This document shows positions 1-16,080 of a DNA stretch of 64,000 nucleotides, one piece after another; within the stretch, counting starts at the first letter, position 1; the number at the start of each line of letters is the position of its first letter. Both the position numbers and the translations under genes were made by a program. This stretch comes from Eledone cirrhosa (Eukaryota): the NCBI GenBank assembly GCA_964016885.1, contig OZ024766.1, forward strand, positions 20,584,001 through 20,648,000, written 5' to 3'. The notes under the pieces were generated by a model. The model did no database searches. It was given only the letters and a program-made list of their open reading frames with translations, and was not told where the DNA came from.

Positions 1-446
1 CGCTTCATCGCCGCCTCGCACGCCTTCCGTCGCACCCTGTGGCGCCGATACCACCTCTGGATGCTGCGTGCGGCGATGCGCTCCTCCAAGTCGGTCGTCG
101 GGGGGCGGCGGCGGCACTTCGTCCGAGGAGCCACCGCCGCCGGCAAGCCTCCTCCGCCGAGCGTCGGACTTTCGCCGTCACCCCCGGGGTGCGTGGGCAC
201 GCCGCGCGTCCCCCGGGCCGCCGACGACGACGGCGGGCAGTTGTTTGCGCCGCTGCTCACGAGCGATTTGGGGTCGTCGTGGTTTAAGCACTGGTTCGTC
301 GTCTCCCCCTTGCTCAGTCTATGCCCCGGGGGGCTGGCCTTGGGGGTGGCAGGTTTCCCACTGCTGACTGGGTTACACAGCGTAAAGATGGAATCAATGA
401 AAGTGTTCGATATTTCCGATTGGTTGGAGTTGGAGCCTTTTCTCAC
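1..446 (-). CDS. CEP131: CEP131 coding exon 7 (IQ motif), truncated by window edge
   Basis: Acceptor ctgtctattcag|GTG; open frame VRKGSNSNQSE...AARSIQRWYRRHRVRRKACEAAMK; GC-rich. Confidence 0.85.
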   Translation of the reverse strand, partial: MRKGSNSNQSEISNTFIDSIFTLCNPVSSGKPATPKASPPGHRLSKGETTNQCLNHDDPKSLVSSGANNCPPSSSAARGTRGVPTHPGGDGESPTLGGGGLPAAVAPRTKCRRRPPTTDLEERIAARSIQRWYRRHRVRRKACEAAMK

Positions 447-1738: not shown

Positions 1739-3280
1739 AACGTTTGTATTTGTAAAGCCAAAACAATGCAGGTATGGACATAGAATATAAATGCAAATGC
1801 AAAAGATATTGTTGACAATTAGTCTTTTACCTTAAATTTATTTAAATATCCTTAATTTTCGAGATAATATCTCTTCTTCGGAGGGAAGTAAAGTGGTTAA
1901 ACCACCGTTCTAAATAGCTTGCCAAGTCATAAAAGAGTCTAACTGCGGCGTTCGAAGAAACCAGATGGTCAATAGATACACTCTGGTGATTAACCACGTG
2001 ATGGGATCCCCACCATGGGACCTTCACGTGCAAATCAGTTCAGTCCATTCTTTGGGACATTAAACATCCAGGTACGACCTAACTCTTCTGCACACACCAC
2101 TCCATCAATAAAATATTTGTTACGTTAATAACCATGGGTTGACATTACTCTCATACCAATAACTTGTGCAGCCGTTATCATGATAAACCAAATAATAATT
2201 GTTTCTACCATTGACACAAGGCCAGCAATTACCCAGTACATTACTGGTACTTTATTTTATCGACCCCGTAAGGATGAAAGGCAAAGTTAACCTCGACGGG
2301 ATTTGAACGAGATAAACCAAATAATAACGAGGGTTATTATAATAATTAATTGTTTCTACTTTAGGCACAAGGCCAGCAATTACCCAGTGCATTACTGGTA
2401 CTTTATTTTATCGACCCCGTAAGGATGAAAGGCAAAGTTAACCTCGGCGGGATTTGAACTCAGAATGGCAAGGGCCGTAACTCTATACGTCAAAGATTAA
2501 TGGTTTTACATCAAGTCAGAATACCACGTATCGTATATCCCGTTATTATTTGCTGCCCATGTCTCACTACCATGCAACATCGTGCTCCTCACACAGGCAT
2601 CATATAACCGGCCTTTCGTATTTGTTTAAGAGGGGCCTACTGACTGTAGGTTTCGCTTTGTGTGACCCCTTTATGAAATAAATCTGGTAAACTCTGCCCT
2701 TATGTGTTTCTGGTTGAAGGTACAACATAGAGCTGAAGAAGTTTAGAGAAATCTCAGTCACATCTGAGAAACTTCGACGTGAGAGATGGATTGAGGACAA
2801 AACTAAGATAATTAAGGTGAGTTCTACGCTTTGGGGGTTTCAGAGTGGGGGGGGGGGGGGGGGGTTCGGGGTTTCTGGGATTTCAGGGTGTCTTGCTCAT
2901 ATATATATATATATACACACATATATATACACACACACCTATATATATATATGCATACACATATATACACACATATATATATACACACACATATATACAC
3001 ACACACATATACACACCTATACACAGACACTCACATATACACACACACACACACCTACATATATACACACACATATATACACACCTATATATATACAAGA
3101 AACTTCGACGTGAGAGATGGATTGAGGACAAAACTAAGATAATTAAGGTGAGTTTCTGGGCTTTGGGGGTTTCAGAGTGGGGGGGGGGGTTTCGGGGTTT
3201 CGGGGGTGTCTTGCTCGTATATATATATATATATACACACATATATATACACACACACCTATATATATATATGCATACAC

Positions 3281-4000: not shown

Positions 4001-7000
4001 CTACATATATACACACACATATATACACACCTATATATACACACCTATATATACAAGAAACTTCAACGTGAGAGATGGATTGAGGACAAAACTAAGATAA
4101 TTAAGGTGAGTTTCTGGGCTTTGGGGGTTTCAGAGTGGGGGGGGGGGGTTCGGGGTTTCGGGGTGTCTTGCTCGTATATATATATACACACACATATATA
4201 CACACCTATATATATATATATATGCATACACATATATACACACATATATATATACACACACACACATATACACACCTATATATATACACACACATATATA
4301 TACACACACATATATACACACCTATATATATATATATATATATGCATACACACATATATATATACACACACATATATACACACACACATACACACACCTA
4401 CATATACACACACATATACACACACACACACACCTACATATATACACACACATATATACACACCTATATATACAAGAAACTTCGACGTGAGAGATGGATT
4501 GAGGACAAAACTAAAATAATTAAGGTGAGTTTCTGGGCTTTTGGGGTTTAGGGGTTGAAAAAAAGGTGTTTCTGTCTCAGGAAATTAGCTGAAAAAAAAA
4601 AAAAAAATGTCAAGAAATCTGAAGGGCTCACTCACCTGGTTTACTGGGGCTTTGGGTTTAAAATTCCGACAGGAGTTCTCAATGTTGGACAGAGAAGCTT
4701 TCGTCTGAGGTGTCATAGCTTGGGAAGTCTTGTTGTTGGCAATGTGGTTGAGAGTGTGCGGCGTGGTAGCAAGGCTGGTGGCCGACAGGGGGCGCTGGCT
4801 GTTGAGAGTGTGCGGCGTGGTAGCAGGACTGGTGGCCACCAGGGGGCGCTGGCTGTTGAGAGTGTGTGGTGTCGTAGCAAGGCTGGTGGCCGACAGGGGG
4901 CGCTGGCTGTTGACAGTGTGTGGCGTGGTAGCAAGGCTGGTGGCCGACAGGGGGCGCTGGCTGTTGAGAGTGTGTGGTGTGGTAGCTGGACTGGTGGCCA
5001 CCAGGTGGCGCTGGCTGTTGAGAGTGTGTGGTGTGGTAGCTGGACTGGTGGCCACCAGGTGGCGCTGGCTGTTGAGAGTGTGTGGTGTGGTAGCAGGACT
5101 GGTGGCCACCAGGGGGCGCTGGCTGTTGACATTGTGTGGTGTAGTGCACAGACTGGCCACCTGGGGGTGCTGGCTGTTGACATTGTGTGGTGTAGTGCAC
5201 AGACTGGCCACCTGGGGGTGCTGGCTGTTGACACTGTGTGGCATAGTACACGGACTGGCCACCTGGGGGTGCTGGGTGTTGACACTGTGTGGCGTAGTGC
5301 ACAGACTGGCCACCTGGGGGTGCTGGGTGTTGATACTGTGTGGCATAGTACACGGACTGGCCAACAGGTTGCGCTGATTATGGCTTCTGTGAACCGTAGT
5401 AGAGGAAGTGTTGGCCACCAGGGTGCGCTGACTACTGTCGCTGTCAACCATAGCACACGGACTGCTCACCAGGTGGCGCTGGGTGTTGTCGCTGCGAGCT
5501 GTAGTACCAGGACTGCTCACCAGGTGGCGCTGGGTGTTGTCGCTGCGAGCTGTAGTACCAGGACTGCTCACCAGGTGGCGCTGGGCGTTGTCGCTGCGAG
5601 GTGTAGTACCAGGACTGCTCACCAGGTGGCGTTGGGTGTTGTCGCTGCGAGGTGTCGTACCAGGACTGCTCACCAGGTGGCGCTGGGTGTTGTCGCTGCG
5701 AGCTGTAGTACCAGGACTGCTCACCAGGTGGCGCTGGGTGTTGTCGCTGCGAGCTGTAGTACCAGGACTGCTCACCAGGTGGCGCTGGGCGTTGTCGCTG
5801 CGAGGTGTAGTACCAGGACTGCTCACCAGGTGGCGTTGGGTGTTGTCGCTGCGAGGTGTAGTACAAGAACTACTCACTAGGTGGTGCTGGGTGTTGCCCG
5901 CGGTGTTCAGTATTGCGTCCATGCTAAACACAGCAGTTCTCTGGCTTTCAAAAAAGCTGCAATAGAAATATATATATATATGTACATATAAAACCTCCAT
6001 GGAACAAACTCCCTGCATCAGTTGTTAGCTGTCGAGACACTGCATCCTTTAAAACCTCCATGGAACAAACTCCCTGCATCAGTTGTTAGCTGTCGAGACA
6101 CAGCATCCTTTAAAACCTCCATGGAACAAACTCCCTGCATCAGTTGTTAGCTGTCGAGACACTGCATCCTTTAAAACCTCCATGGAACAAACTCCCTGCA
6201 TCAGTTGTTAGCTGTCGAGACACTGCATCCTTTAAAACCTCCATGGAACAAACTCCCTGCATCAGTTGTTAGCTGTCGAGACACAGCATCCTTTAAAACC
6301 TCCATGGAACAAACTCCCTGCATCAGTTGTTAGCTGTCGAGACACTGCATCCTTTAAAACCTCCATGGAACAAACTCCCTGCATCAGTTGTTAGCTGTCG
6401 AGACACTGCATCCTTTAAAACCTCCATGGAACAAACTACCTGCATCAGTTGTTAGCTGTCGAGACACTGCATCCTTTAAAACCTTCATGGAACAAACTCC
6501 CTGCATCAGTTGTTAGCTGTTGAGACACTGCATCCTTTAAAACCTCCATGGAACAAACTACCTGCATCAGTTGTTAGCTGTTGAGACACTGCATCCTTTA
6601 AAACCTCCATGGAACAAACTGCCTGCATCAGTTGTTAGGTGTCGAGACACTGCATCCTTTAAAACCTCCATGGAACAAACTACCTGCATCAGTTGTTAGC
6701 TGTCGAGACACTGCATCCTTTAAAACCTCCATCGAACAAACTACCTGCATCAGTTGTTAGCTGTCGAGACACTGCATCCTTTAAAACCGCCATGGAACAA
6801 ACTACCTGCATCATTTTAACAACCGATGCAGGTAGTTTGTTCCATGGAGGTTTTAAAGGATGCAGTGTCTCGACAGCTAACAACTGATGCATCCTTTAAA
6901 ACCTCCATGTTTCCTGAGATTCGCCAACACTACACCTAATGTTCCCCCTCCACACACATACACACATGTATATCATGACTCATACACTGTTCACTTCCCT

Positions 7001-10000
7001 GACATTTCTACATTATTCTATGTACTACACATGCACCTTTGATGAGTTGTAGTGCACCTGAGCACTGTACACACAATAATTTCATTATATTATATATTAT
7101 ATAGAGACATATATACTCACCTATTTCTCGAGCTGTTCAATTTGTCAGTCTTGCTTATGTAATGCGACAGAATATCCCCCATCTTCAAATCCACAACAGA
7201 TTCGTCTGAGCTAAAACTGACACCATTCAGAAAGTGCTTGTCTTCAGTTACCTCCCCTTTGCTGCACTTCCGTCGGGACATGTTCTTGACACTTGCCCCT
7301 GAGGTGGACACCGCGCCTGGTGGCAACTCCTGACAATTATAATAATAATAATTCTTTGTACTTTTTGGCACAAGGCCAGCAATTACCCAGTAAATTACTG
7401 GTACTTTTATTTAATAATAATAATAATTTACTGTGACAATACAATAGTATATATAGAGTAATGTAAATGTTATGTGAGATATTATGTGAGGTAAAGCCTT
7501 TACTGTGACAATACAATAGTATATATAGAGTAATGTAAATGTTATGTGAGGTATTATGTGAGGTAAAGCCTTTACTGTGACAATACAATAGTATATATAG
7601 AGTAATGTAAATGTTATGTGAGATATTATGTGAGGTAAAGCCTTTACTGTGACAATACAATAGTATATATAGAGTAATGTAAATGCTATGTGAGATATTA
7701 TGTGAGGTAAAGCCTTTACTGTGACAATACAATAGTATATATAGAGTAATGTAAATGTTATGTGAGATATTATGTGAGGTAAAGCCTTTACTGTGACAAT
7801 ACAATAGTATATATAGAGTAATGTAAATGTTATGTGAGGTATTATGTGAGGTAAAGCCTTTACTGTGACAATACAATAGTATATATAGAGTAATGTAAAT
7901 GTTATGTGAGATATTATGTGAGGTAAAGCCTTTACTGTAACAATACAGTAGTATATATAGAGTAATGTAAATGTTATGTGAGATATTATGTGAGGTAAAG
8001 CCTTTACTGTGACAATACAATAGTATATATAGAGTAATGTAAATGTTATGTGAGGTATTATGTGAGGTAAAGACTTTACTGTGACAATACAATAGTATAT
8101 ATAGAGTAATGTAAATGTTATGTGAGATATTATGTGAGGTAAAGCCTTTACTGTGACAATACAATAGTATATATAGAGTAATGTAAATGTTATGTGAGAT
8201 ATTATGTGAGGTAAAGCCTTTACTGTGACAATACAATAGTATATATAGAGTAATGTAAATGTTATGTGAGATATTATGTGAGGTAAAGCCTTTACTGTGA
8301 CAATACAATAGTATATATAGAGTAATGTAAATGTTATGTGAGATATTATGTGAGGTAAAGCCTTTACTGTGACAATACAATAGTATATATAGAGTAATGT
8401 AAATGTTATGTGAGGTAAAGCCTTTACTGTGACAATACAATAGTATATATAGAGTAATGTAAATGTTATGTGAGATATTATGTGAGGTAAAGCTTTTACT
8501 GTGACAATACAATAGTATATATAGAGTAATGTAAATGTTATGTGAGGTATTATGTGAGGTAAAGCCTTTACTGTGACAATACAATAGTATATATAGAGTA
8601 ATGTAAATGTTATGTGAGGTAAAGCCTTTACTGTGACAATACAATAGTATATATAGAGTAATGTAAATGCTATGTGAGGTATTATGTGAGGTAAAGCCTT
8701 TACTGTGACAATACAATAGTATATATAGAGTAATGTAAATGTTATGTGAGATATTATGTGAGGTAAAGCCTTTACTGTGACAATACAATAGTATATATAG
8801 AGTAATGTAAATGTTATGTGAGATATTATGTGAGGTAAAGCCTTTACTGTGACAATACAATAGTATATATAGAGTAATGTAAATGTTATGTGAGATATTA
8901 TGTGAGGTAAAGCCTTTACTGTGACAATACAATAGTATATATAGAGTAATGTAAATGTTATGTGAGATATTATGTGAGGTAAAGCCTTTACTGTGACAAT
9001 ACAATAGTATATATAGAGTAATGTAAATGTTATGTGAGGTATTATGTGAGGTAAAGCCTTTACTGTGACAATACAATAGTATATATAGAATAATGTAAAT
9101 GTTATGTGAGATATTATGTGAGGTAAAGCCTTTACTGTGACAATACAATAGTATATATAGAGTAATGTAAATGTTATGTGAGATATTATGTGAGGTAAAG
9201 CCTTTACTGTGACAATACAATAGTATATATAGAGTAATGTAAATGTTATGTGAGATATTATGTGAGGTAAAGCCTTTACTGTGACAATACAATAGTATAT
9301 ATAGAGTAATGTAAATGTTATGTGAGATATTATGTGAGGTAAAGCCTTTACTGTGACAATACAATAGTATATATAGAGTAATGTAAATGTTATGTGAGGT
9401 ATTATGTGAGGTAAAGCCTTTACTGTGACAATACAATAGTATATATAGAGTAATGTAAATGTTATGTGAGATATTATGTGAGGTAAAGCCTTTACTGTGA
9501 CAATACAATAGTATATATAGAGTAATGTAAATAAAAAAGGGTTAAGGGACAGACTGACAGACAGTAGTAAACTCACCGAATTGCAGCATTGGTGTGATTT
9601 TTTTGACAGCCTGTCTGAATTAGTCCTTAGCTTCTGTTTGGTGGTGTTGTTGTTGTTGTTTTTGTTGGTGTTGTTGTCACCAAACAATAACGTGAAGACA
9701 TCACTGTAAAAGACAGAAGAAAGGCATGGTGCATCTAGGACCACATTATCTTTAACCCTTTCATTACATATTTTTAATGGAGCATAACTGAACAAAGGTT
9801 CTTACATAAAATTATGATGGAAATATTTTTAGATAAATATAAACACTTTAAAATAAACAGTTTAGTATCATAGAACATGGAGGCACATGGCTTAGTGGTT
9901 AGAGCATTACCCTTGCAATCGAAAGGTTGTGAGTTTAATTCTCAGACTGGGTGATGTGTTGTTTCCTTGAGCAAGACACTTTATTTCACATTGCTCCAGT

Positions 10001-13000
10001 TTACTCAGCTGTAGAAATGAGATGATAGGGACTGGGGTCCCTATCATTCCACTGTAAAGTGGTCGTGGAAGTGCCACTGCAAAAAAGCACCCAGCACTCA
10101 CTGTAGAGTGATCGTGGAGGTGCCACGGCAAAAAAAGCACCCAGCACTCACTGTAAAGTGGTCGTGGAGGTGCCACAGCAAAAAAGCACCCAGCACTCAC
10201 TGTAAAGTGGTTGTGGAGGTGCCACGGCAAAAAAGCACCCAGCACTCACTGTAAAGTGGTCGTGGAGGTACCACAGCAAAAAAGCACCCAGCACTCACTG
10301 TAGAGTGGTCGTGGAGGTGCCACAGCAAAAAAGCACCCAGCACTCACTGTAGAGTGGTCGTGGAGGTGCCACGGCAAAAAAGCACCCAGCACTCACTGTA
10401 AAGTGGTTGTGGAGGTGCCACGGCAAAAAAGCACCCAGCACTCACTGTAGAGTGGTCGTGGAGGTGCCACAGCAAAAAAGCACCCAGCACTCACTGTAAA
10501 TGAGGTTGGTGTTAGGAAGGGCATCCAGCTGTAGAAATCAAGCCAGAATCAGTTCCCGTCCCACCCTTGCAAGCAGGGAAAAGCAGACGTAAAATGATGA
10601 TGATGATGTATCGTATCTTCATGTATATATACTTGCGTATAATATCAATATACACACTACACATGCTAGCAGGAAAACCACCTGAGGGCGGTTTTCCTGC
10701 TAGTTATTATTAATACGGGTAGTTTCCGTACAAAAAAGGTTAATGAACAGGAGGGGTTTATGGCAATAGAATACATACCTTCTGGGTTGAAATTTAGAGG
10801 GTTTCTCCATGCCTCTACCTGTTTTGGTGCTGACATCTGACCGAGGCGCAGAACTGTGAAGGAGGAGGTTACTGGGAGAGATATTGGAATCTGTAAGAAG
10901 AAATGACAGAAAATGTAGGGGTTTACTGTGAGGTGTGGGCCCTAACATGTAGGGAGCAGTGGTGTTTGTAATGAGAAAATTTATAGAAATTTAGGGGTTT
11001 ACTGTGAGGTGAGAGCCCTAACATGTAGGGAACAGTGGTGTTTGTAATGAGAAAATTTATAGAAATTTTGGGGTTTACTGTGAGGTGTGGGCCCTAACAT
11101 GTAGGGAGCAGTGGTGTTTGTAATGAGAAAATTTATAGAAATTTAGGGGTTTACTGTGAGGTGAGAGCCCTAACATGTAGGGAGCAGTGGTGTTTGTAAT
11201 GAGAAAATTTATAGAAATTTTGGGGTTTACTGTGAGGTGTGGGCCCTAACATGTAGGGAGCAGTGGTGTTTGTAATGAGAAAATTTATAGAAATTTAGGG
11301 GTTTACTGTGAGGTGTGGGCCCTAACATGTAAGGAGCAGTGGTGTTTGTAATGAGAAAATTTATAGAAATTTAGGGGTTTACTGTGAGGTGAGAGCCCTA
11401 ACATGTAGGGAACAGTGGTGTTTGTAATGAGAAAATTTATAGAAATTTAGGGGTTTACTGTGAGGTGTGGGCACTGGTAACTGGCCCTTAATATGTAGGG
11501 AACATTTGTGTCTGAAATAAGAAAACGCAGGGGTTTATTTAGGTTCACTCCCAGTCCTCTTGCTCCTCTACTGATTCTGCTATAAGAACCAGATCTTCAG
11601 CACAGAGAAGTTCCCATGGACAGCCAGTCTTAAACTCCTCTGTTAGGGCTCCAAGAACAGAAGTGGGCTGAGGACCAAACCTTTTGTCTCAGCTAGGTTC
11701 ACTCTCAGTCCTCTTAATTCCAACTGCTGTTTCCATAGCCAGAGTTTATTCTCTAGCTCCTCTACTGATTCTGCTATAAGAACCGGATCTTCAGCATAGA
11801 GAAGTTCCCATGGACAGCCAGTCTTAAACTCCTCTGTTAGGGCTCCAAGAACAGAAGTGGGCTGAGGACCAAACCTTTTGTCTCAGCTAGGTTCACTCTC
11901 AGTCCTCTTAATTCCAACTGCTGTTTCCATAGCCAGAGTTTATTCTCTAGCTCCTCTACTGATTCTGCTATAAGAACCAGATCTTCAGCACAGAGAAGTT
12001 CCCATGGACAGCCAGTCTTAAACTCCTCTGTTAGGGCTCCAAGAACAGAAGTGGGCTGAGGACCAAACCTTTTGTCTCAGCTAGGTTCACTCTCAGTCCT
12101 CTTGCTTCCAACTGCTGTTTCCATAGCCAGAGTTTATTCTCTAGCTCCTCTACTGATTCTGCTATAAGAACCAGATCTTCAGCACAGAGAAGTTCCCATG
12201 GACAGCCAGTTAAACTCCTCTGTTAGAGCCCCAAGAACAGAAGTGGGCTGAGGACCAAACCTTTTGTCTCAGCTAGGTTCACTCTCAGTCCTCTTAATTC
12301 CAACTGCTGTTTCCATAGCCAGAGTTTATTCTCTAGCTCCTCTACTGATTCTGAGATAAGAACCACCGTCAAATTTCCCCCTATATCTACTGCATACGTA
12401 TCATCATCATCATCATCATCATCATTATCATTTTACGTCCGCTTTTCCCTGCTTGCAAGGGTGGGACGGGAACTGATTCTGGCTTGATTTCTACAGCTGG
12501 ATGCCCTTCCTAACACCAACCTCATTTACAGTGTGGGCTGGGTGCTTTTTTTGCCGTGGCACCTCCACGACCACTTTACAGTGAGTGCTGGGTGCTTTTT
12601 AGCCGTGGCACCTCCACGTCCACTTTACAGTGAGTGCTGGGTGCTTTTTTTGCCGTGGCATCTTCACGACCACTTTACAGTGAGGGCTGGGTGCTTTTTT
12701 GCTGTGGCACCTCCACGACCACTTTACAGTGAGGGCTGGGTGCTTTTTTGCCGTGGCACCTTCACGACCACTTTACAGTGAGGGCTGGGTGCTTTTTTGC
12801 TGTGGTACCTCCACGACCACTTTACAGTGAGTGCTGGGTGCTTTTTTGCTGTGGCATCTCCACGACCACTTTACAGTGAGTGCTGGGTGCTTTTTTTGCC
12901 GTGGCACCTCCACGTCCACTTTACAGTGAGTGCTGGGTGCTTTTTTGCTGTGGCACCTCCACGACCACTTTACAGTGAGTGCTGGGTGCTTTTTTGCCGT

Positions 13001-14475
13001 GGCACCTCCACGACCACTTTACAGTATGGGCTGGGTGCTTTTTTGCTGTGGCACCTCCATGACCACTTTACAGTGAGTGCTGGGTGCTTTTTTGCCGTGG
13101 CACCTCCACGACCACTCTACAGTGAGTGCTGGGTGCTTTTTTTGCCGTGGCACCTCCACGTCCACTTTACAGTGAGTGCTGGGTGCTTTTTTTGCCGTGG
13201 CACCTCCACGTCCACTTTACAGTGAGTGCTGGGTGCTTTTTTTTGCCGTGGCACCTCCACGTCCACTTTACAGTGAGTGCTGGGTGCTTTTTTTGCCGTG
13301 GCACCTCCATGACCACTTTACAGTGAGTGCTGGGTGCTTTTTTTGCCGTGGCACCTCCATGACCACTTTACAGTGAGTGCTGGGTGCTTTTTTGCCGTGG
13401 CACCTCCACAACCACTTTACAGTGGAACGATAGGGACCCCAGTCCCTATCATCTCATTTCTACAGCTGAGTAAACTGGAGCAATGTGAAATAAAGTGTCT
13501 TGCTCAAGGAAACAACACATCACCCAGTCTGAGAATTGAACTCACAACCTTTCGATTGCAAGGCCAATGCTCTAACCACTAAGCCATATGCCTCCACATA
13601 TATATCTGCATATATCCAATATACACACTACATATACTAGCAAAAAAAAAAACCGCCCGGTGGCTGATAACGATTAAAGGGAGATAAACATGTCTGCCAG
13701 TCGTACCTGCTCTTCTTCTTGATGTGTCTGAAATTACCGAATAATTACTTTTGGCAGACAGCGATCGTTTCTATGGAAACAAAAGATGTTTGACCATTAT
13801 TAACATTTAATAAAGATTTCATTAGAAACATGGAATGAAAGGGTTAACGTGTTTATATTTATGCAGGAACCTTTGTTAAGCTATGTCCCACTAGAAATAT
13901 GGCAATGAAAGGATTAAAGTGTTTATATTTATCTAAACACCTTCCATGATAATTTTATGTAAGAACCTTTGTTAAGTTATGTCCCATTAGAAATATGGTA
14001 ATGAAAGGGTTAAAGTGTTTATATTTATGTAAGAATCTTTGTTAAGCTATGTTCCATTAGAAATATGGCAATGAAAGGGTTAAAGTGTTTATATTTATGT
14101 AAGAACCTTTGTTAAGCTATGTCCCATTAGAAATATGGAAATGAAAGGGTTAAAGTGTTTATATTTATCTAAAAACCTTCCATCATAATTTTACTGCAGC
14201 TGATATGGTTGACTAAATGAAGGCAGTGCCCCAGCCTGGGCACAGTCTAGTGACTGAAAACAATATATATATATATATATAAAAGAATATCTAAAAGAAA
14301 CATAACAAACCAGCTTTTTGTCCATCTCGTTGACGGAGCTGTGGCTTCTGAGTTGCTTAGCAACCGGTGTGCGGCAGGGAGACGAGAGCACTGTCATCTG
14401 AGAGCCGGACACTCGCAGCTTAACGCTGCCATCTTCGTTGTGGTGGTTGTTGTTGTTGTTCTTGTGGCTGGACAT
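1..14475 (-). CDS. CEP131: CEP131/AZI1 centriolar-satellite protein, 5' part (7 coding exons in window: 14475-14311, 13770-13707, 10890-10779, 9703-9577, 7329-7121, 5956-4636, 446-<1); continues past the left edge
   Basis: All six junctions are GT-AG and phase-consistent (0,1,2,0,2,0) with no stop. The last exon encodes DLEERIAARSIQRWYRRHRVRRKA, matching the CEP131 IQ motif (human AAVTIQRWYRHQ, from memory). SDVFTLLFG resembles CEP131 TDFLMLFEG. Confidence 0.85.
517..904. mobile_element. Palindromic element, probable inverted Penelope-like pLTR remnant (family A)
   Basis: ~170-bp near-perfect inverted arms set in (TA)n; hammerhead-like motif in each arm; second copy at 56184-56550. Confidence 0.6.
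708..752 (+). ncRNA. Minimal type-I hammerhead ribozyme motif
   Basis: AGUCA-CUGAAGA-G-GUCACA gagug UAUGAC-GAAA-GAAC-UA/UGACU; stem I AGUCA:UGACU. Confidence 0.55.
1188..1226 (-). ncRNA. Mirror hammerhead motif (sense to the CEP131 pre-mRNA)
   Basis: Reverse complement reads CCUU-UUGAAAA-GCAGaagaaCUGC-GAAA-CCGG-UA/AAGG. Confidence 0.6.
1310..1349 (+). ncRNA. Minimal type-I hammerhead ribozyme motif, U3-A8 core variant
   Basis: ACCUU-UUGAAAA-GCAG aagaa CUGC-GAAA-CCGG-UA/AAGGU; stems I and II fully paired, palindromic helix III. Confidence 0.65.
1453..1630. mobile_element. Small palindrome (1524-1630) with degenerate CUGAUGA...GAAAC motif and a one-sided extension
   Basis: tagatgagattctacaggactagaact / agttctagtcctgtagaatctcatcta arms; CTGATGA at 1574; flanked by (TA)n. 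Confidence 0.5.
2200..2482 (-). mobile_element. Two tandem fragments of a tRNA-derived SINE (family with gccgaggttaactttgcctttcatcc...gataaaataaagtaccag...ggccttgtg)
   Basis: Same sequence recurs at 7350-7412, 15485-15780, 23583-23680, 30790-30900, 33258-33920. Confidence 0.7.
2720..2816 (+). other. CEP131: Intact CEP131 coiled-coil exon in inverted orientation inside a CEP131 intron
   Basis: ttctggttgaag|G...AAG|gtgagt; encodes YNIELKKFREISVTSEKLRRERWIEDKTKIIK versus human CEP131 HELEIKKLKELMSATEKARREKWISEKTKKIK (from memory). Confidence 0.75.
2767..4550 (+). repeat. Five tandem copies of the 3' half of the inverted exon plus donor, separated by (CA/TA)n tracts
   Basis: agaaacttc(g/a)acgtgagagatggattgaggacaaaactaagataattaag|gtgagt with GT at 2817, 3148, 3512, 4106, 4525. 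Confidence 0.9.
4636..5956 (-). CDS. CEP131: CEP131 coding exon 6, containing 22 tandem 17/18-aa S/T/P-rich repeats
   Basis: Acceptor tattgcag|C (phase 2), donor CAG|gtgagt (phase 0); 1321 nt, open throughout (ORF 4585..6018). Confidence 0.75.
5990..7090 (+). repeat. 61-bp tandem array (~13 copies) derived from a CR1/L2-type LINE ORF2 end, followed by a LINE-like 3' tail
   Basis: Unit translates as PWNKLPASVVSCRDTASFKTS (WNxLPxxVV...FK motif); one inverted unit at 6825-6891. Confidence 0.7.
7121..7329 (-). CDS. CEP131: CEP131 coding exon 5
   Basis: ttgtcag|GAG...AG|gtgagt; ELPPGAVSTSG...KLNSSRN; phases 0/2. Confidence 0.75.
7427..9545. repeat. 72-bp (variant 60-bp) tandem array, ~30 copies
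   Basis: tttactgtgacaatacaatagtatatatagagtaatgtaaatgttatgtgagatattatgtgaggtaaagcc; ends in aaagggttaa; same unit at 25530-26057. Confidence 0.95.
9577..9703 (-). CDS. CEP131: CEP131 coding exon 4
   Basis: ttttacag|T...TCG|gtgagt; SDVFTLLFGDNN...HQCCNS; phases 2/0. Confidence 0.75.
9879..10608 (+). mobile_element. tRNA-derived SINE with internal 49-50-bp VNTR (~9 units) and (ATG)n tail
   Basis: A-box tggcttagtgg, B-box-like gagtttaattc, ccttgagcaagacactt core, ggaagggcatccagctgtagaaa tail. Confidence 0.85.
10779..10890 (-). CDS. CEP131: CEP131 coding exon 3
   Basis: ttcttacag|AT...AG|gtatgt; DSNISPSNLLLHSS...KFQPR; phases 1/2. Confidence 0.75.
10913..11505. repeat. 73-bp tandem repeat, ~8 copies
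   Basis: ggggtttactgtgaggtgtgggccctaacatgtagggagcagtggtgtttgtaatgagaaaatttatagaaattt. Confidence 0.9.
11540..12365. repeat. 194-bp tandem repeat, ~4 copies
   Basis: ataagaacc recurs with 192-194-bp spacing. Confidence 0.9.
12400..13595 (-). mobile_element. Same VNTR-SINE, full length, ~18 internal units
   Basis: Near-exact reverse complement of 9879-10608. Confidence 0.85.
13707..13770 (-). CDS. CEP131: CEP131 coding exon 2
   Basis: tttccatag|AAA...G|gtacga; KRSLSAKSNYSVISDTSRRRA; phases 0/1. Confidence 0.7.
13838..14190 (-). repeat. ~68-bp tandem repeat from a TTAACCCTT-ended MITE family
   Basis: Reverse complement of the unit at 42180-43110. Confidence 0.75.
14311..14475 (-). CDS. CEP131: CEP131 coding exon 1 (exon starts at 14486; ATG at 14475)
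   Basis: ctcttgcag| acceptor; MSSHKNNNNNHHNEDGSVKLRVSGSQ...EMDKKL|gtttgt. Confidence 0.75.
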
Positions 14476-14524: not shown

Positions 14525-15485
14525 ATTTCATTTTTTTTTTCTTTTACGTCTGCTTTTCCCTGCTTGCAAGGGTGGGACGGGAACTGGTTCTGGCTTGATT
14601 TCTACAGCTGGATGCCCTTCCTAACACCAACCTCATTTACAGTGAGTGCTGGGTGCTTTTATTTGCCGTGGCACCTCCACGACCACTTTACAGTGAGTGA
14701 TGGGTGCTTTTTTGCCTTGGCACCTCCACGACCACTTTACAGTGAGTGCTGGGTGCTTTTTTGCCGTGGCACCTCCACGACCACTTTACAGAGAGGGCTG
14801 GGTGCTTTTTTGCCCTGGCACCTCCACGACCACTTTACAGTGAGTGCTGGGTGTTTTTTTGCCGTGGCACCTCCAAGACCACTTTACAGTGAGTGCTGGG
14901 TGCTTTTTTACCGTGGCACCTCCACAACCACTTTACAGTGGGTGCTGGGTGCTTTTTTGCCGTGGCACCTCCACGACCACTTTACAGTGAGGGCTGGGTG
15001 CTTTTTTGCCCTGGCACCTCCACGACCACTTTACAGTGAGTGCTGGGTGCTTTTTTGCCGTGGCACCTCCAAGACCACTTTACAGTGAGTGCTGGGTGCT
15101 TTTTTGCCGTGGCACCTCCAAGACCACTTTACAGTGAGTGCTGGGTGCTTTTTTACCGTGGCACCTCCACAACCACTTTACAGTGGGTGCTGGGTGCTTT
15201 TTTACCGTGGCACCTCCACAACCACTTTACAGTGAGTGGTGGGTGCTTTTTTGCTGTGGCACCTCCACGACCACTTTACAGTGAGTGCTGGGTGCTTTTT
15301 TGCCGTGGCACCTCCACGACCACTTTACAGTGGGTGCTGGGTGCTTTTTTACCGTGGCACCTCCACAACCACTTTACAGTGAGTGGTGGGTGCTTTTTTG
15401 CTGTGGCACCTCCACGACCACTTTACAGTGAGTGCTGGGTGCTTTTTTGCCGTGGCACCTCCACGACCACTTTACAGTGTGGGCT
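14525..15485 (-). mobile_element. VNTR-SINE lacking the tRNA head, ~17 units
   Basis: Tail and VNTR match 12400-13595. Confidence 0.8.
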
Positions 15486-15849
15486 GTATTACTGGTACTT
15501 TATTTTACTGACCCCGTAATAACTGTTTCTACTGGGGGGGGGGGGGGGGGGGGGGCACAAGGCCAGCAATTACTCCAGTGTATTACTGGTACCTTATTTT
15601 ACCGACCCCGTATTAAATGTTTCTAATGTTGGGGGCACAAGGCCAGCAATTACCCCAGTGTATTACTGGTACTTTATTTTACTGACCCTGTAATAAACGT
15701 TTCTACTTTTTTTGGGGGGGGGGGCACAAGGCCAGCAATTACCCTAGTGTATTACTGGTACTTTATTTTACCGACCCCCCCGCAAGGAAGAAAGGCAAGG
15801 CGAAGGCGAAGCGGAAGAAGGAGGAGCAACAGCAGGCAAAGGTACTCAC

Positions 15850-16080
15850 CTGTGGAGGAGAAAGAGGGGGTCACCACTGAAGGGCGGAGTCTGCTGCAGC
15901 TGGGCCGGGTTTAATTACAACTGACAGGTGTAACAGGTAAGTAACAGAAACAGAACAGCCGGAGGTAAAATGTTGCGTCGACATTACCTCAATTCCACAG
16001 ACAGAACAACAACGGACAGAGTTGTCGGTGTTTGCTAGCAACCAGATGGTCACATGACATCGTCCACTTCCGCTTCCGTT
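15850..16080 (-). other. CEP131: Probable non-coding first exon / TSS region of CEP131
   Basis: Strong donor CAG|gtgagt at 15850; CpG-rich unique sequence; the 5' boundary is only approximate. Confidence 0.55.

Follow-up and report, generated by a model that had tools for sequence, protein, structure and literature searches.

The locus described here raises the question of whether a protein-coding exon, in which a short segment has been multiplied in tandem, may at the same time act as a one-directional array of sites for the CTCF protein. The array occupies 1.14 kb (positions 4747-5889) of a 64-kb stretch of genomic DNA from the octopus Eledone cirrhosa, referred to below as the window, and it comprises 22 tandem units of 51 and 54 bp. 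Among cephalopods, CTCF and cohesin have been reported for Euprymna, together with a CCCTC-like motif at domain boundaries (PMC9023564), and CTCF-like motifs have been described at loop anchors in three coleoids (PMC13652810); motif direction in cephalopods is left unresolved in the available text of PMC10658182. The available text of PMC13317027 describes no CTCF orientation pattern in echinoderms, that of PMC12221973 places CTCF-dependent extrusion, so far, in vertebrates only and, as far as these excerpts extend, direction-dependent CTCF anchoring is not established beyond vertebrates (PMC13317027, PMC12221973, PMC10658182).

The initial annotation had assigned the array to exon 6 of CEP131, and splice phases, homology and domain names all bear this out. 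The coding exons listed in Table 1 form a minus-strand chain with continuous splice phases and no stop codons. For the first coding exon one protein was matched among four candidates, P0004 of Octopus sinensis, with 70% identity. This match, together with the presence in P0004 of PF27681 and PF27695, named CEP131_CC and CEP131_C, upholds the CEP131 label, and the exons match P0004 collinearly, as is expected of an ortholog. In the sources, P0004 carries the misleading automatic name "serine-rich adhesin for platelets". Sequence searches with the IQ exon or the array exon yielded no homologs of either, and a search of 1.84 billion representatives returned just two unrelated repeat proteins. A Pfam-A profile search gave no family for P0004 and no significant family for three peptides of the window, the leads from an Atlas look-up of the IQ exon were all below 0.9, and the matches in a PDB search were IQ peptides only.

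Evidence that the exon is spliced in, as had been supposed, differs for its two ends. Run X1 yielded a contig of 1031 nt that aligns with 5842-5958 and continues, at its loose end, as the window from 7123 onward, which marks the junction 7121|5956; the RNA origin is deduced from the contig being spliced, and the result derives from one run of one study and concerns the 5' edge of the exon. Five upstream exons account for 688 nt of the contig, leaving 228 nt for the first exon that ends at 15850. At 5878 the contig meets a phase-0 donor-like site and extends beyond it by 37 nt, to 5842, with neither a joint nor a loose end, and because it passes this site unspliced the start of the array is present in spliced RNA. 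On the 3' side the case is made by homology: similarity to P0004 extends through the tail of the exon as far as the next exon, an argument for the array being contained in a single coding exon. A reading of the array as an intron is disfavoured by the contig running beyond 5878; minor short isoforms are possible, as contigs drop rare forms. Nine phase-0 donor-like sites lie on the minus strand at 5470-5878, the first at 5878, each overlapping a core, and splicing at any of them would delete, without a frameshift, the conserved tail and whatever repeats come after the site.

The supposition that the repeat had expanded in frame also proved correct, with an open frame across the whole exon. Stop codons are absent from the array in the coding frame and number 1-34 in each of the other five frames. 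As proof of coding the stop-free frame was rejected as uninformative (P 0.40).

Table 1. Exons of the CEP131 gene and subdivisions of the repeat array in the 64-kb window
Feature	Position	Strand	Details
Inferred 5' UTR exon and promoter region	15850..16077	-	Donor at 15850; upstream end inferred; about 10 kb from array
Four further coding exons	14486-14311 (ATG at 14475), 13770-13707, 10890-10779, 9703-9577	-	Three of the four match P0004 by tblastn
Coding exon preceding the array exon	7121..7329	-	Spliced to array exon (X1 contig); tblastn match to P0004
Array exon, CEP131 coding exon 6 (seventh counting the 5' UTR exon)	4636..5956	-	1321 nt, phase 2 to phase 0, no stop; spliced 7121|5956 junction; both ends match P0004
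Following coding exon, with IQ-like motif	1..446	-	Extends beyond the window; GC3 0.80
Seven 54-bp units	4747..5121	+	Cores at 4833, 4995, 5049, 5103 score 24.9-25.5 bits; those at 4779, 4887, 4941 score 18.3 bits
Four 51-bp units	5122..5325	+	Cores of 16.5 bits, altered at two high-information columns
Diverged middle	5326..5481	+	Cores at 5358 (14.5 bits), 5412 (18.8 bits), 5463 (17.3 bits), split by the two most diverged spacers
Eight 51-bp units	5482..5889	+	Cores of 12.1-17.3 bits; in six units a 10-mer resembling the upstream module (2-3 mismatches) precedes the core by 5 nt

A scan of the 64-kb window with a loose core pattern gave 22 matches on the plus strand, at positions 4779-5871, and none on the minus strand. 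Thus a CTCF-like core is present in every unit and always on the same strand, as the initial annotation had stated, and each example that it quoted was found in its place. The uniform direction and the spacing of 54 or 51 bp were likewise borne out, successive core-to-core distances being 54 bp (six times), 51 bp (five times), 54 bp and 51 bp (nine times). Such a cluster of co-oriented sites is a trait of tandem CTCF insulators or anchors, and the head-to-tail arrangement of units of only 51 and 54 bp in an open frame is a trait of coding minisatellites. Within 5482..5889, the cores of the eight units coincide in part with donor-like sites that are in frame on the coding strand. Two other explanations of the repeated unit were discarded: a Chi-like minisatellite core was seen in just three of 22 units, and a cyclin-docking RxL peptide is kept neither in O. 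sinensis nor in five of the units.

The cores were scored with a reconstruction of the CTCF counts of JASPAR MA0139.1, a vertebrate matrix; the column sums of the reconstruction are consistent, and all bit values given here and in Table 1 are subject to that qualification. A 15-bp core consensus is also taken as given in the available text of PMC12885311. Scores for the 22 units range from 12.1 to 25.5 bits, the maximum possible being 26.1, and the per-site p values range from 4.5e-5 to 1.1e-10 against the GC content of the array itself (62%); four units reach at least 24.9 bits, with p of about 1e-10 to 7e-10 on the same background. All 22 units carry a match to the core that is read by fingers 3-7. 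Elsewhere in the window only four sites exceed 8 bits, the best scoring 12.2 bits, and the best score within the 25 other tandem arrays is 5.4 bits. When three units were doublet-shuffled (20,000 times each), 16.5 bits or more was attained in 0.05-0.17% of shuffles and 22.6 bits was never exceeded. Synonymous recoding, which had been proposed as a check, was performed at GC3 0.66 for eight of the nine distinct cores, and the actual codons scored above the recoded ones with P 0.0008-0.01 for seven of the eight core peptides and 0.06 for the eighth, the units being non-independent. Given the common origin of the units, the core matches amount to approximately one event rather than 22, and that one event is far beyond chance within the 64-kb window.

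The claim that most 51-bp units also carry an upstream motif was confirmed in part. The quoted 10-mers are placed 5 nt upstream of the core in eight of the 14 units of 51 bp, but good matches to the published 10-bp module (PMC12885311, available text) are confined to four of the 22 units with two mismatches and two more with three, and none of the four best cores has one. Chance expectations for one unit at two spacings are 0.0008 for two mismatches and 0.007 for three. The four best cores have 6-7 mismatches to the module, the 54-bp units at 4747..5121 lack it at 5-6 nt, and across the array it varies like spacer, with 17 changes in nine columns. In the available portions of the sources, the module has been shown in vertebrates as far as lamprey (PMC5504073) and was not found in Drosophila (PMC12885311); our literature search found nothing on such a module in molluscs.

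Comparison with O. sinensis bears on the age of the array. P0004 has, at the equivalent place and between homologous flanks, a single copy of the 17-residue segment that is present in 22 copies in the window. With the best synonymous coding, the P0004 residues would reach 5.5 bits in the homologous register, and 11.8 bits anywhere in the 45 surrounding residues; the low ceiling arises because the residues force disfavoured bases at two of the most informative columns. Conservation of the site in a related species, which is typical of architectural sites, was not found in this one outgroup, compared at the protein level. Neither the array nor a strong site is common to Eledone and O. sinensis, and either gain in Eledone or loss in O. 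sinensis would fit. The weaker, 17-bit type of core has serine and cysteine residues in common with O. sinensis, which suggests that it may represent the older state and that the near-perfect cores are derived. The next exon (1-446) is strongly diverged, with 31% identity to O. sinensis over the alignment, and this divergence, together with a GC3 of 0.80 and a CpG observed/expected ratio of 1.13, points to strong GC-biased change in the lineage.

The initial annotation had also suggested that the core is better conserved than its flanks, and as counted this stands. On a tree of the 16 distinct units, 18 changes fall in the 19 core columns and 56 in the 32 others (p 0.013), and the core is the least variable 19-bp window, ranking first of 51 circular windows. 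Three phasings that include all units agree, with binomial p values of 0.013, 0.0015 and 0.0024 and, when stratified by base class and CpG, 0.02, 0.006 and 0.011. The result is fragile, however, once the diverged middle units are removed, when the binomial p values become 0.094 and 0.028, the stratified values 0.19 and 0.11 and the ranks 5 and 7 of 51, and also at non-CpG third positions, where core and spacer alike show three changes in five columns. Much of the signal was traced to the two most diverged, and old, spacers in 5326..5481 and to CpG decay. The repeats evolve by exchange, such that tree-based counts are approximate, and the array was itself selected for study because the motif was visible in every unit. 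Control arrays, of which 20 of 25 were used, five being dropped as too uniform, were cut into units by crude ungapped tracking; the same test rated 131 of their 1149 windows (11%) no more variable than the core, which indicates that the binomial test is too liberal.

Several further measures were obtained for the cores. The core at 5412 departs from its nearest unit at one of 19 positions, compared with 14 and 10 of 32 positions in the spacers on its two sides (P 0.0016). Core codons have a synonymous divergence (pS) of 0.078, compared with 0.487 in the other codons, whereas the respective pN values, 0.237 and 0.255, are about equal. In neutral simulations starting from an existing unit, the mean score was kept with P 0.0014 at the spacer rate and 0.014 at the whole-unit rate, and the minimum score in none of 5000 simulations and with P 0.0018, respectively; at the core's own rate the mean behaved as neutral (P 0.26) and the minimum was somewhat high (P 0.035). 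No unit falls below 12 bits. Key positions of the motif were not spared: changes within the core are unrelated to column information (eight in the eight high-information columns and ten in the eleven low ones; Spearman 0.02), and they are on average as costly as random changes (-3.3 bits; P 0.21-0.38). Both diverged-middle cores lack the consensus base at column 13, which is among the most informative, and cores lying 7-9 bits below the best have been amplified as whole subfamilies of three, four and nine copies. Taken together, these sequence comparisons are suggestive of a core kept by constraint.

What is observed is an array that is spliced, in frame, tandem, motif-bearing and lineage-specific. 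We favour, with roughly even confidence, the reading that the array is a minisatellite within a coding exon of an octopod CEP131 gene, whose expansion multiplied a single CTCF-like site along with it, as a passenger, the site being likely bindable and at most weakly constrained. One 17-codon segment of the low-complexity N-terminus of CEP131, already CTCF-like, would have been multiplied with the expanding repeat, the copies arising by slippage or unequal crossover, while selection may have confined the units to lengths of 51 or 54 bp and allowed the low-complexity N-terminus to lengthen. The motif would then have drifted up and down among the subfamilies under little or weak constraint. Tandem repeats constitute 58% of the window, so that the expansion requires no special cause. 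Favouring the passenger reading are the single copy in P0004 and its 5.5-bit ceiling, core changes that do not spare key columns, the amplification of weak cores, the variable upstream module and the equally quiet control windows; counted against it are the rank of the core among the 51 windows, the rarity with which simulations keep the scores, the core at 5412, the low pS in core codons and the co-occurrence in one array of a core close to perfect with a separate match to the upstream module, which would be hard to put down to luck. If the units are unmethylated, CTCF would be predicted to bind chiefly at the four near-consensus units, giving at most an incidental peak and no selected boundary, and at a spacing of 51-54 bp, given the size of a CTCF footprint, neighbouring sites may crowd each other.

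The initial annotation had envisaged a dual-function exon, a strong unidirectional insulator or loop anchor that expanded with its frame kept open. In the version considered here, selection would maintain a CTCF site in each unit, and the array would serve to insulate through many sites or to anchor in one direction, toward the CEP131 promoter, or else would act as a polymerase brake that helps to define the 1.3-kb exon with its nine in-frame donor-like sites. The motifs do point toward the inferred promoter some 10 kb away, and a vertebrate site in this orientation would hold a loop from the promoter side (PMC12885311, available text). A quiet core with no unit below 12 bits, the core at 5412 kept between diverged spacers and the low pS of core codons would all fit such a role, as would, post hoc, the presence of the best upstream module in the weaker-core subfamily; moreover, tandem sites are described as adding insulation in vertebrates (PMC12885311, PMC11828424), and in cephalopods CTCF-like motifs are reported where domains meet and where loops are anchored (PMC9023564, PMC13652810). 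We nevertheless consider dual function rather unlikely, in view of the fall of the conservation signal to binomial p 0.03-0.09 and stratified p 0.11-0.19 without the diverged units, the failure to avoid changes at key columns, including column 13 in the diverged-middle cores, the lack of a common site in O. sinensis and, as far as the available texts go, the lack of an orientation pattern in echinoderms (PMC13317027) and of the upstream module in Drosophila (PMC12885311). The more specific proposal, that a recently expanded coding minisatellite has been recruited to serve as a CTCF array of 22 sites in one direction, with selection keeping the motif within the reading frame and yielding a lineage-specific super-anchor or splicing brake, would likewise appear unlikely.

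A different possibility is that GC-biased change built a GC-rich, partly palindromic look-alike of the vertebrate motif which octopus CTCF does not bind, owing to gene-body methylation, nucleosomes or a different preference. The GC3 values of 0.80 in the next exon and 0.66 in the array exon are in line with this, as is the use of a reconstructed vertebrate matrix, and CpG observed/expected ratios of 0.51 in the array and 1.13 in the next exon would fit germline methylation, although CG columns show no excess of transition partners (eight of nine, against 14 of 16 GC columns). Mere resemblance is improbable in our estimation, however, since the best core has p of about 1e-10 even at the GC content of the array, the shuffles never reach it and the codons outscore their synonymous recodings. 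Equally, CTCF might have no part in keeping the core, which could owe its persistence to short gene-conversion or crossover tracts with the core at their centre, to a different C2H2 protein or to selection for the peptide Q-R-x-L-V. Unit 5463, with a common core joined to a diverged spacer, is a sign of exchange, and five of the 18 core changes fall in core columns 12-13, where the variable residue x is encoded; against such a cause, pN is equal in core codons and elsewhere, and the O. sinensis copy retains just the arginine of the peptide, and we judge it very doubtful.

The components of the array are known separately, as tandem CTCF arrays, site-per-unit repeats and exonic sites, and their combination is new. 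Macrosatellites such as DXZ4 and D4Z4 bear CTCF sites, coding minisatellites (VNTRs) are a known class in disordered protein regions, and exonic CTCF sites, or "duons", occur in CD45 exon 5 and in Pcdh-alpha. Like the latter, the octopus motif overlaps coding sequence, but those exonic sites are single and of shown occupancy, whereas the array presents predicted sites 22-fold. With coding minisatellites it shares units that are multiples of three, an open frame, subfamily structure and, to judge from the 22 copies against one in O. sinensis, a lineage-specific copy number, and it differs in that its unit bears a near-consensus, long transcription-factor motif. A literature search, mostly of open-access coverage, found no coding minisatellite with a full CTCF core in each unit and nothing on octopus CEP131. 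As a putative insulator, the array resembles the tandem co-oriented CTCF arrays described in part in PMC7087399, PMC12885311 and PMC11828424 (the Pcdh super-enhancer CBS array, Igh and synthetic tandem insulators) in having many same-direction cores within 1-2 kb, some with an upstream-module-like 10-mer; those arrays are non-coding, bound, functionally tested and vertebrate, with a modelled spacing of 180 bp, whereas in the putative octopus array the spacing is 51-54 bp, within an open reading frame. The reiterated CTCF motif clusters of HSV-1, such as CTRL2 (PMC5580483, available text), also consist of short tandem repeats with a motif in each unit, but they are viral, ChIP-supported and based on a CCCTC pentamer, in contrast to the full 19-bp core in a cellular coding exon. 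The 1q23.3 tRNA VNTR (PMC4041453) and DXZ4-type macrosatellites (PMC8662614), in the accounts available, similarly have CTCF sites in each unit, together with a copy-number variability of their own; their units are of kilobase size with shown binding, while the octopus unit of 17-18 codons is barely longer than one CTCF footprint.

Since it is absent in O. sinensis, the array constitutes a natural gain-of-site experiment for direction-dependent blocking of extrusion outside vertebrates, and a stripe or boundary at this locus, but not at that of O. sinensis, would answer the question of extrusion direction for cephalopods. With its graded series of cores, some preceded by an upstream-module-like 10-mer and others not, it would lend itself to testing whether octopus fingers 9-11 recognize the module. 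If the motif is only a passenger, the array shows that strong architectural motifs can arise in large numbers when repeats expand within coding DNA, with no evident cost; if it was co-opted, a super-anchor or splicing brake would be encoded in codons in a spiralian.

Other features of the window were recorded. In the intron after the array exon, on the strand opposite to the CEP131 gene, lies a CEP131 coiled-coil exon (2718-2816, plus strand) that is 76% identical to P0004 residues 970-1002 and has an open frame and a good donor; its 3' half, with the donor, is present in four further partial copies in tandem, which end at 3147, 3511, 4105 and 4524. It represents either an inverted duplication or a local misassembly. 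The same intron contains two near-perfect fold-back palindromes, at 512-909 and 1115-1426, with arms of about 100 nt that are 95-98% complementary, and a short inverted copy of a 61-bp repeat is found near 6820-6890. A 49-bp minisatellite family occurs in several introns in both orientations (10050-10500, 12525-13424, 14636-15486, 44005-44752 and 45595-45750), with diverged relatives of 48-49 bp at 24591, 36766, 39467 and 46984, and a 477-codon open frame at 46959-48392 (plus strand) spans a 48-bp array related to this family. Finally, a 99-bp tandem array at 27609-28699, the unit of which includes a minus-strand donor-like site, is possibly a duplicated exon-intron border of another gene.
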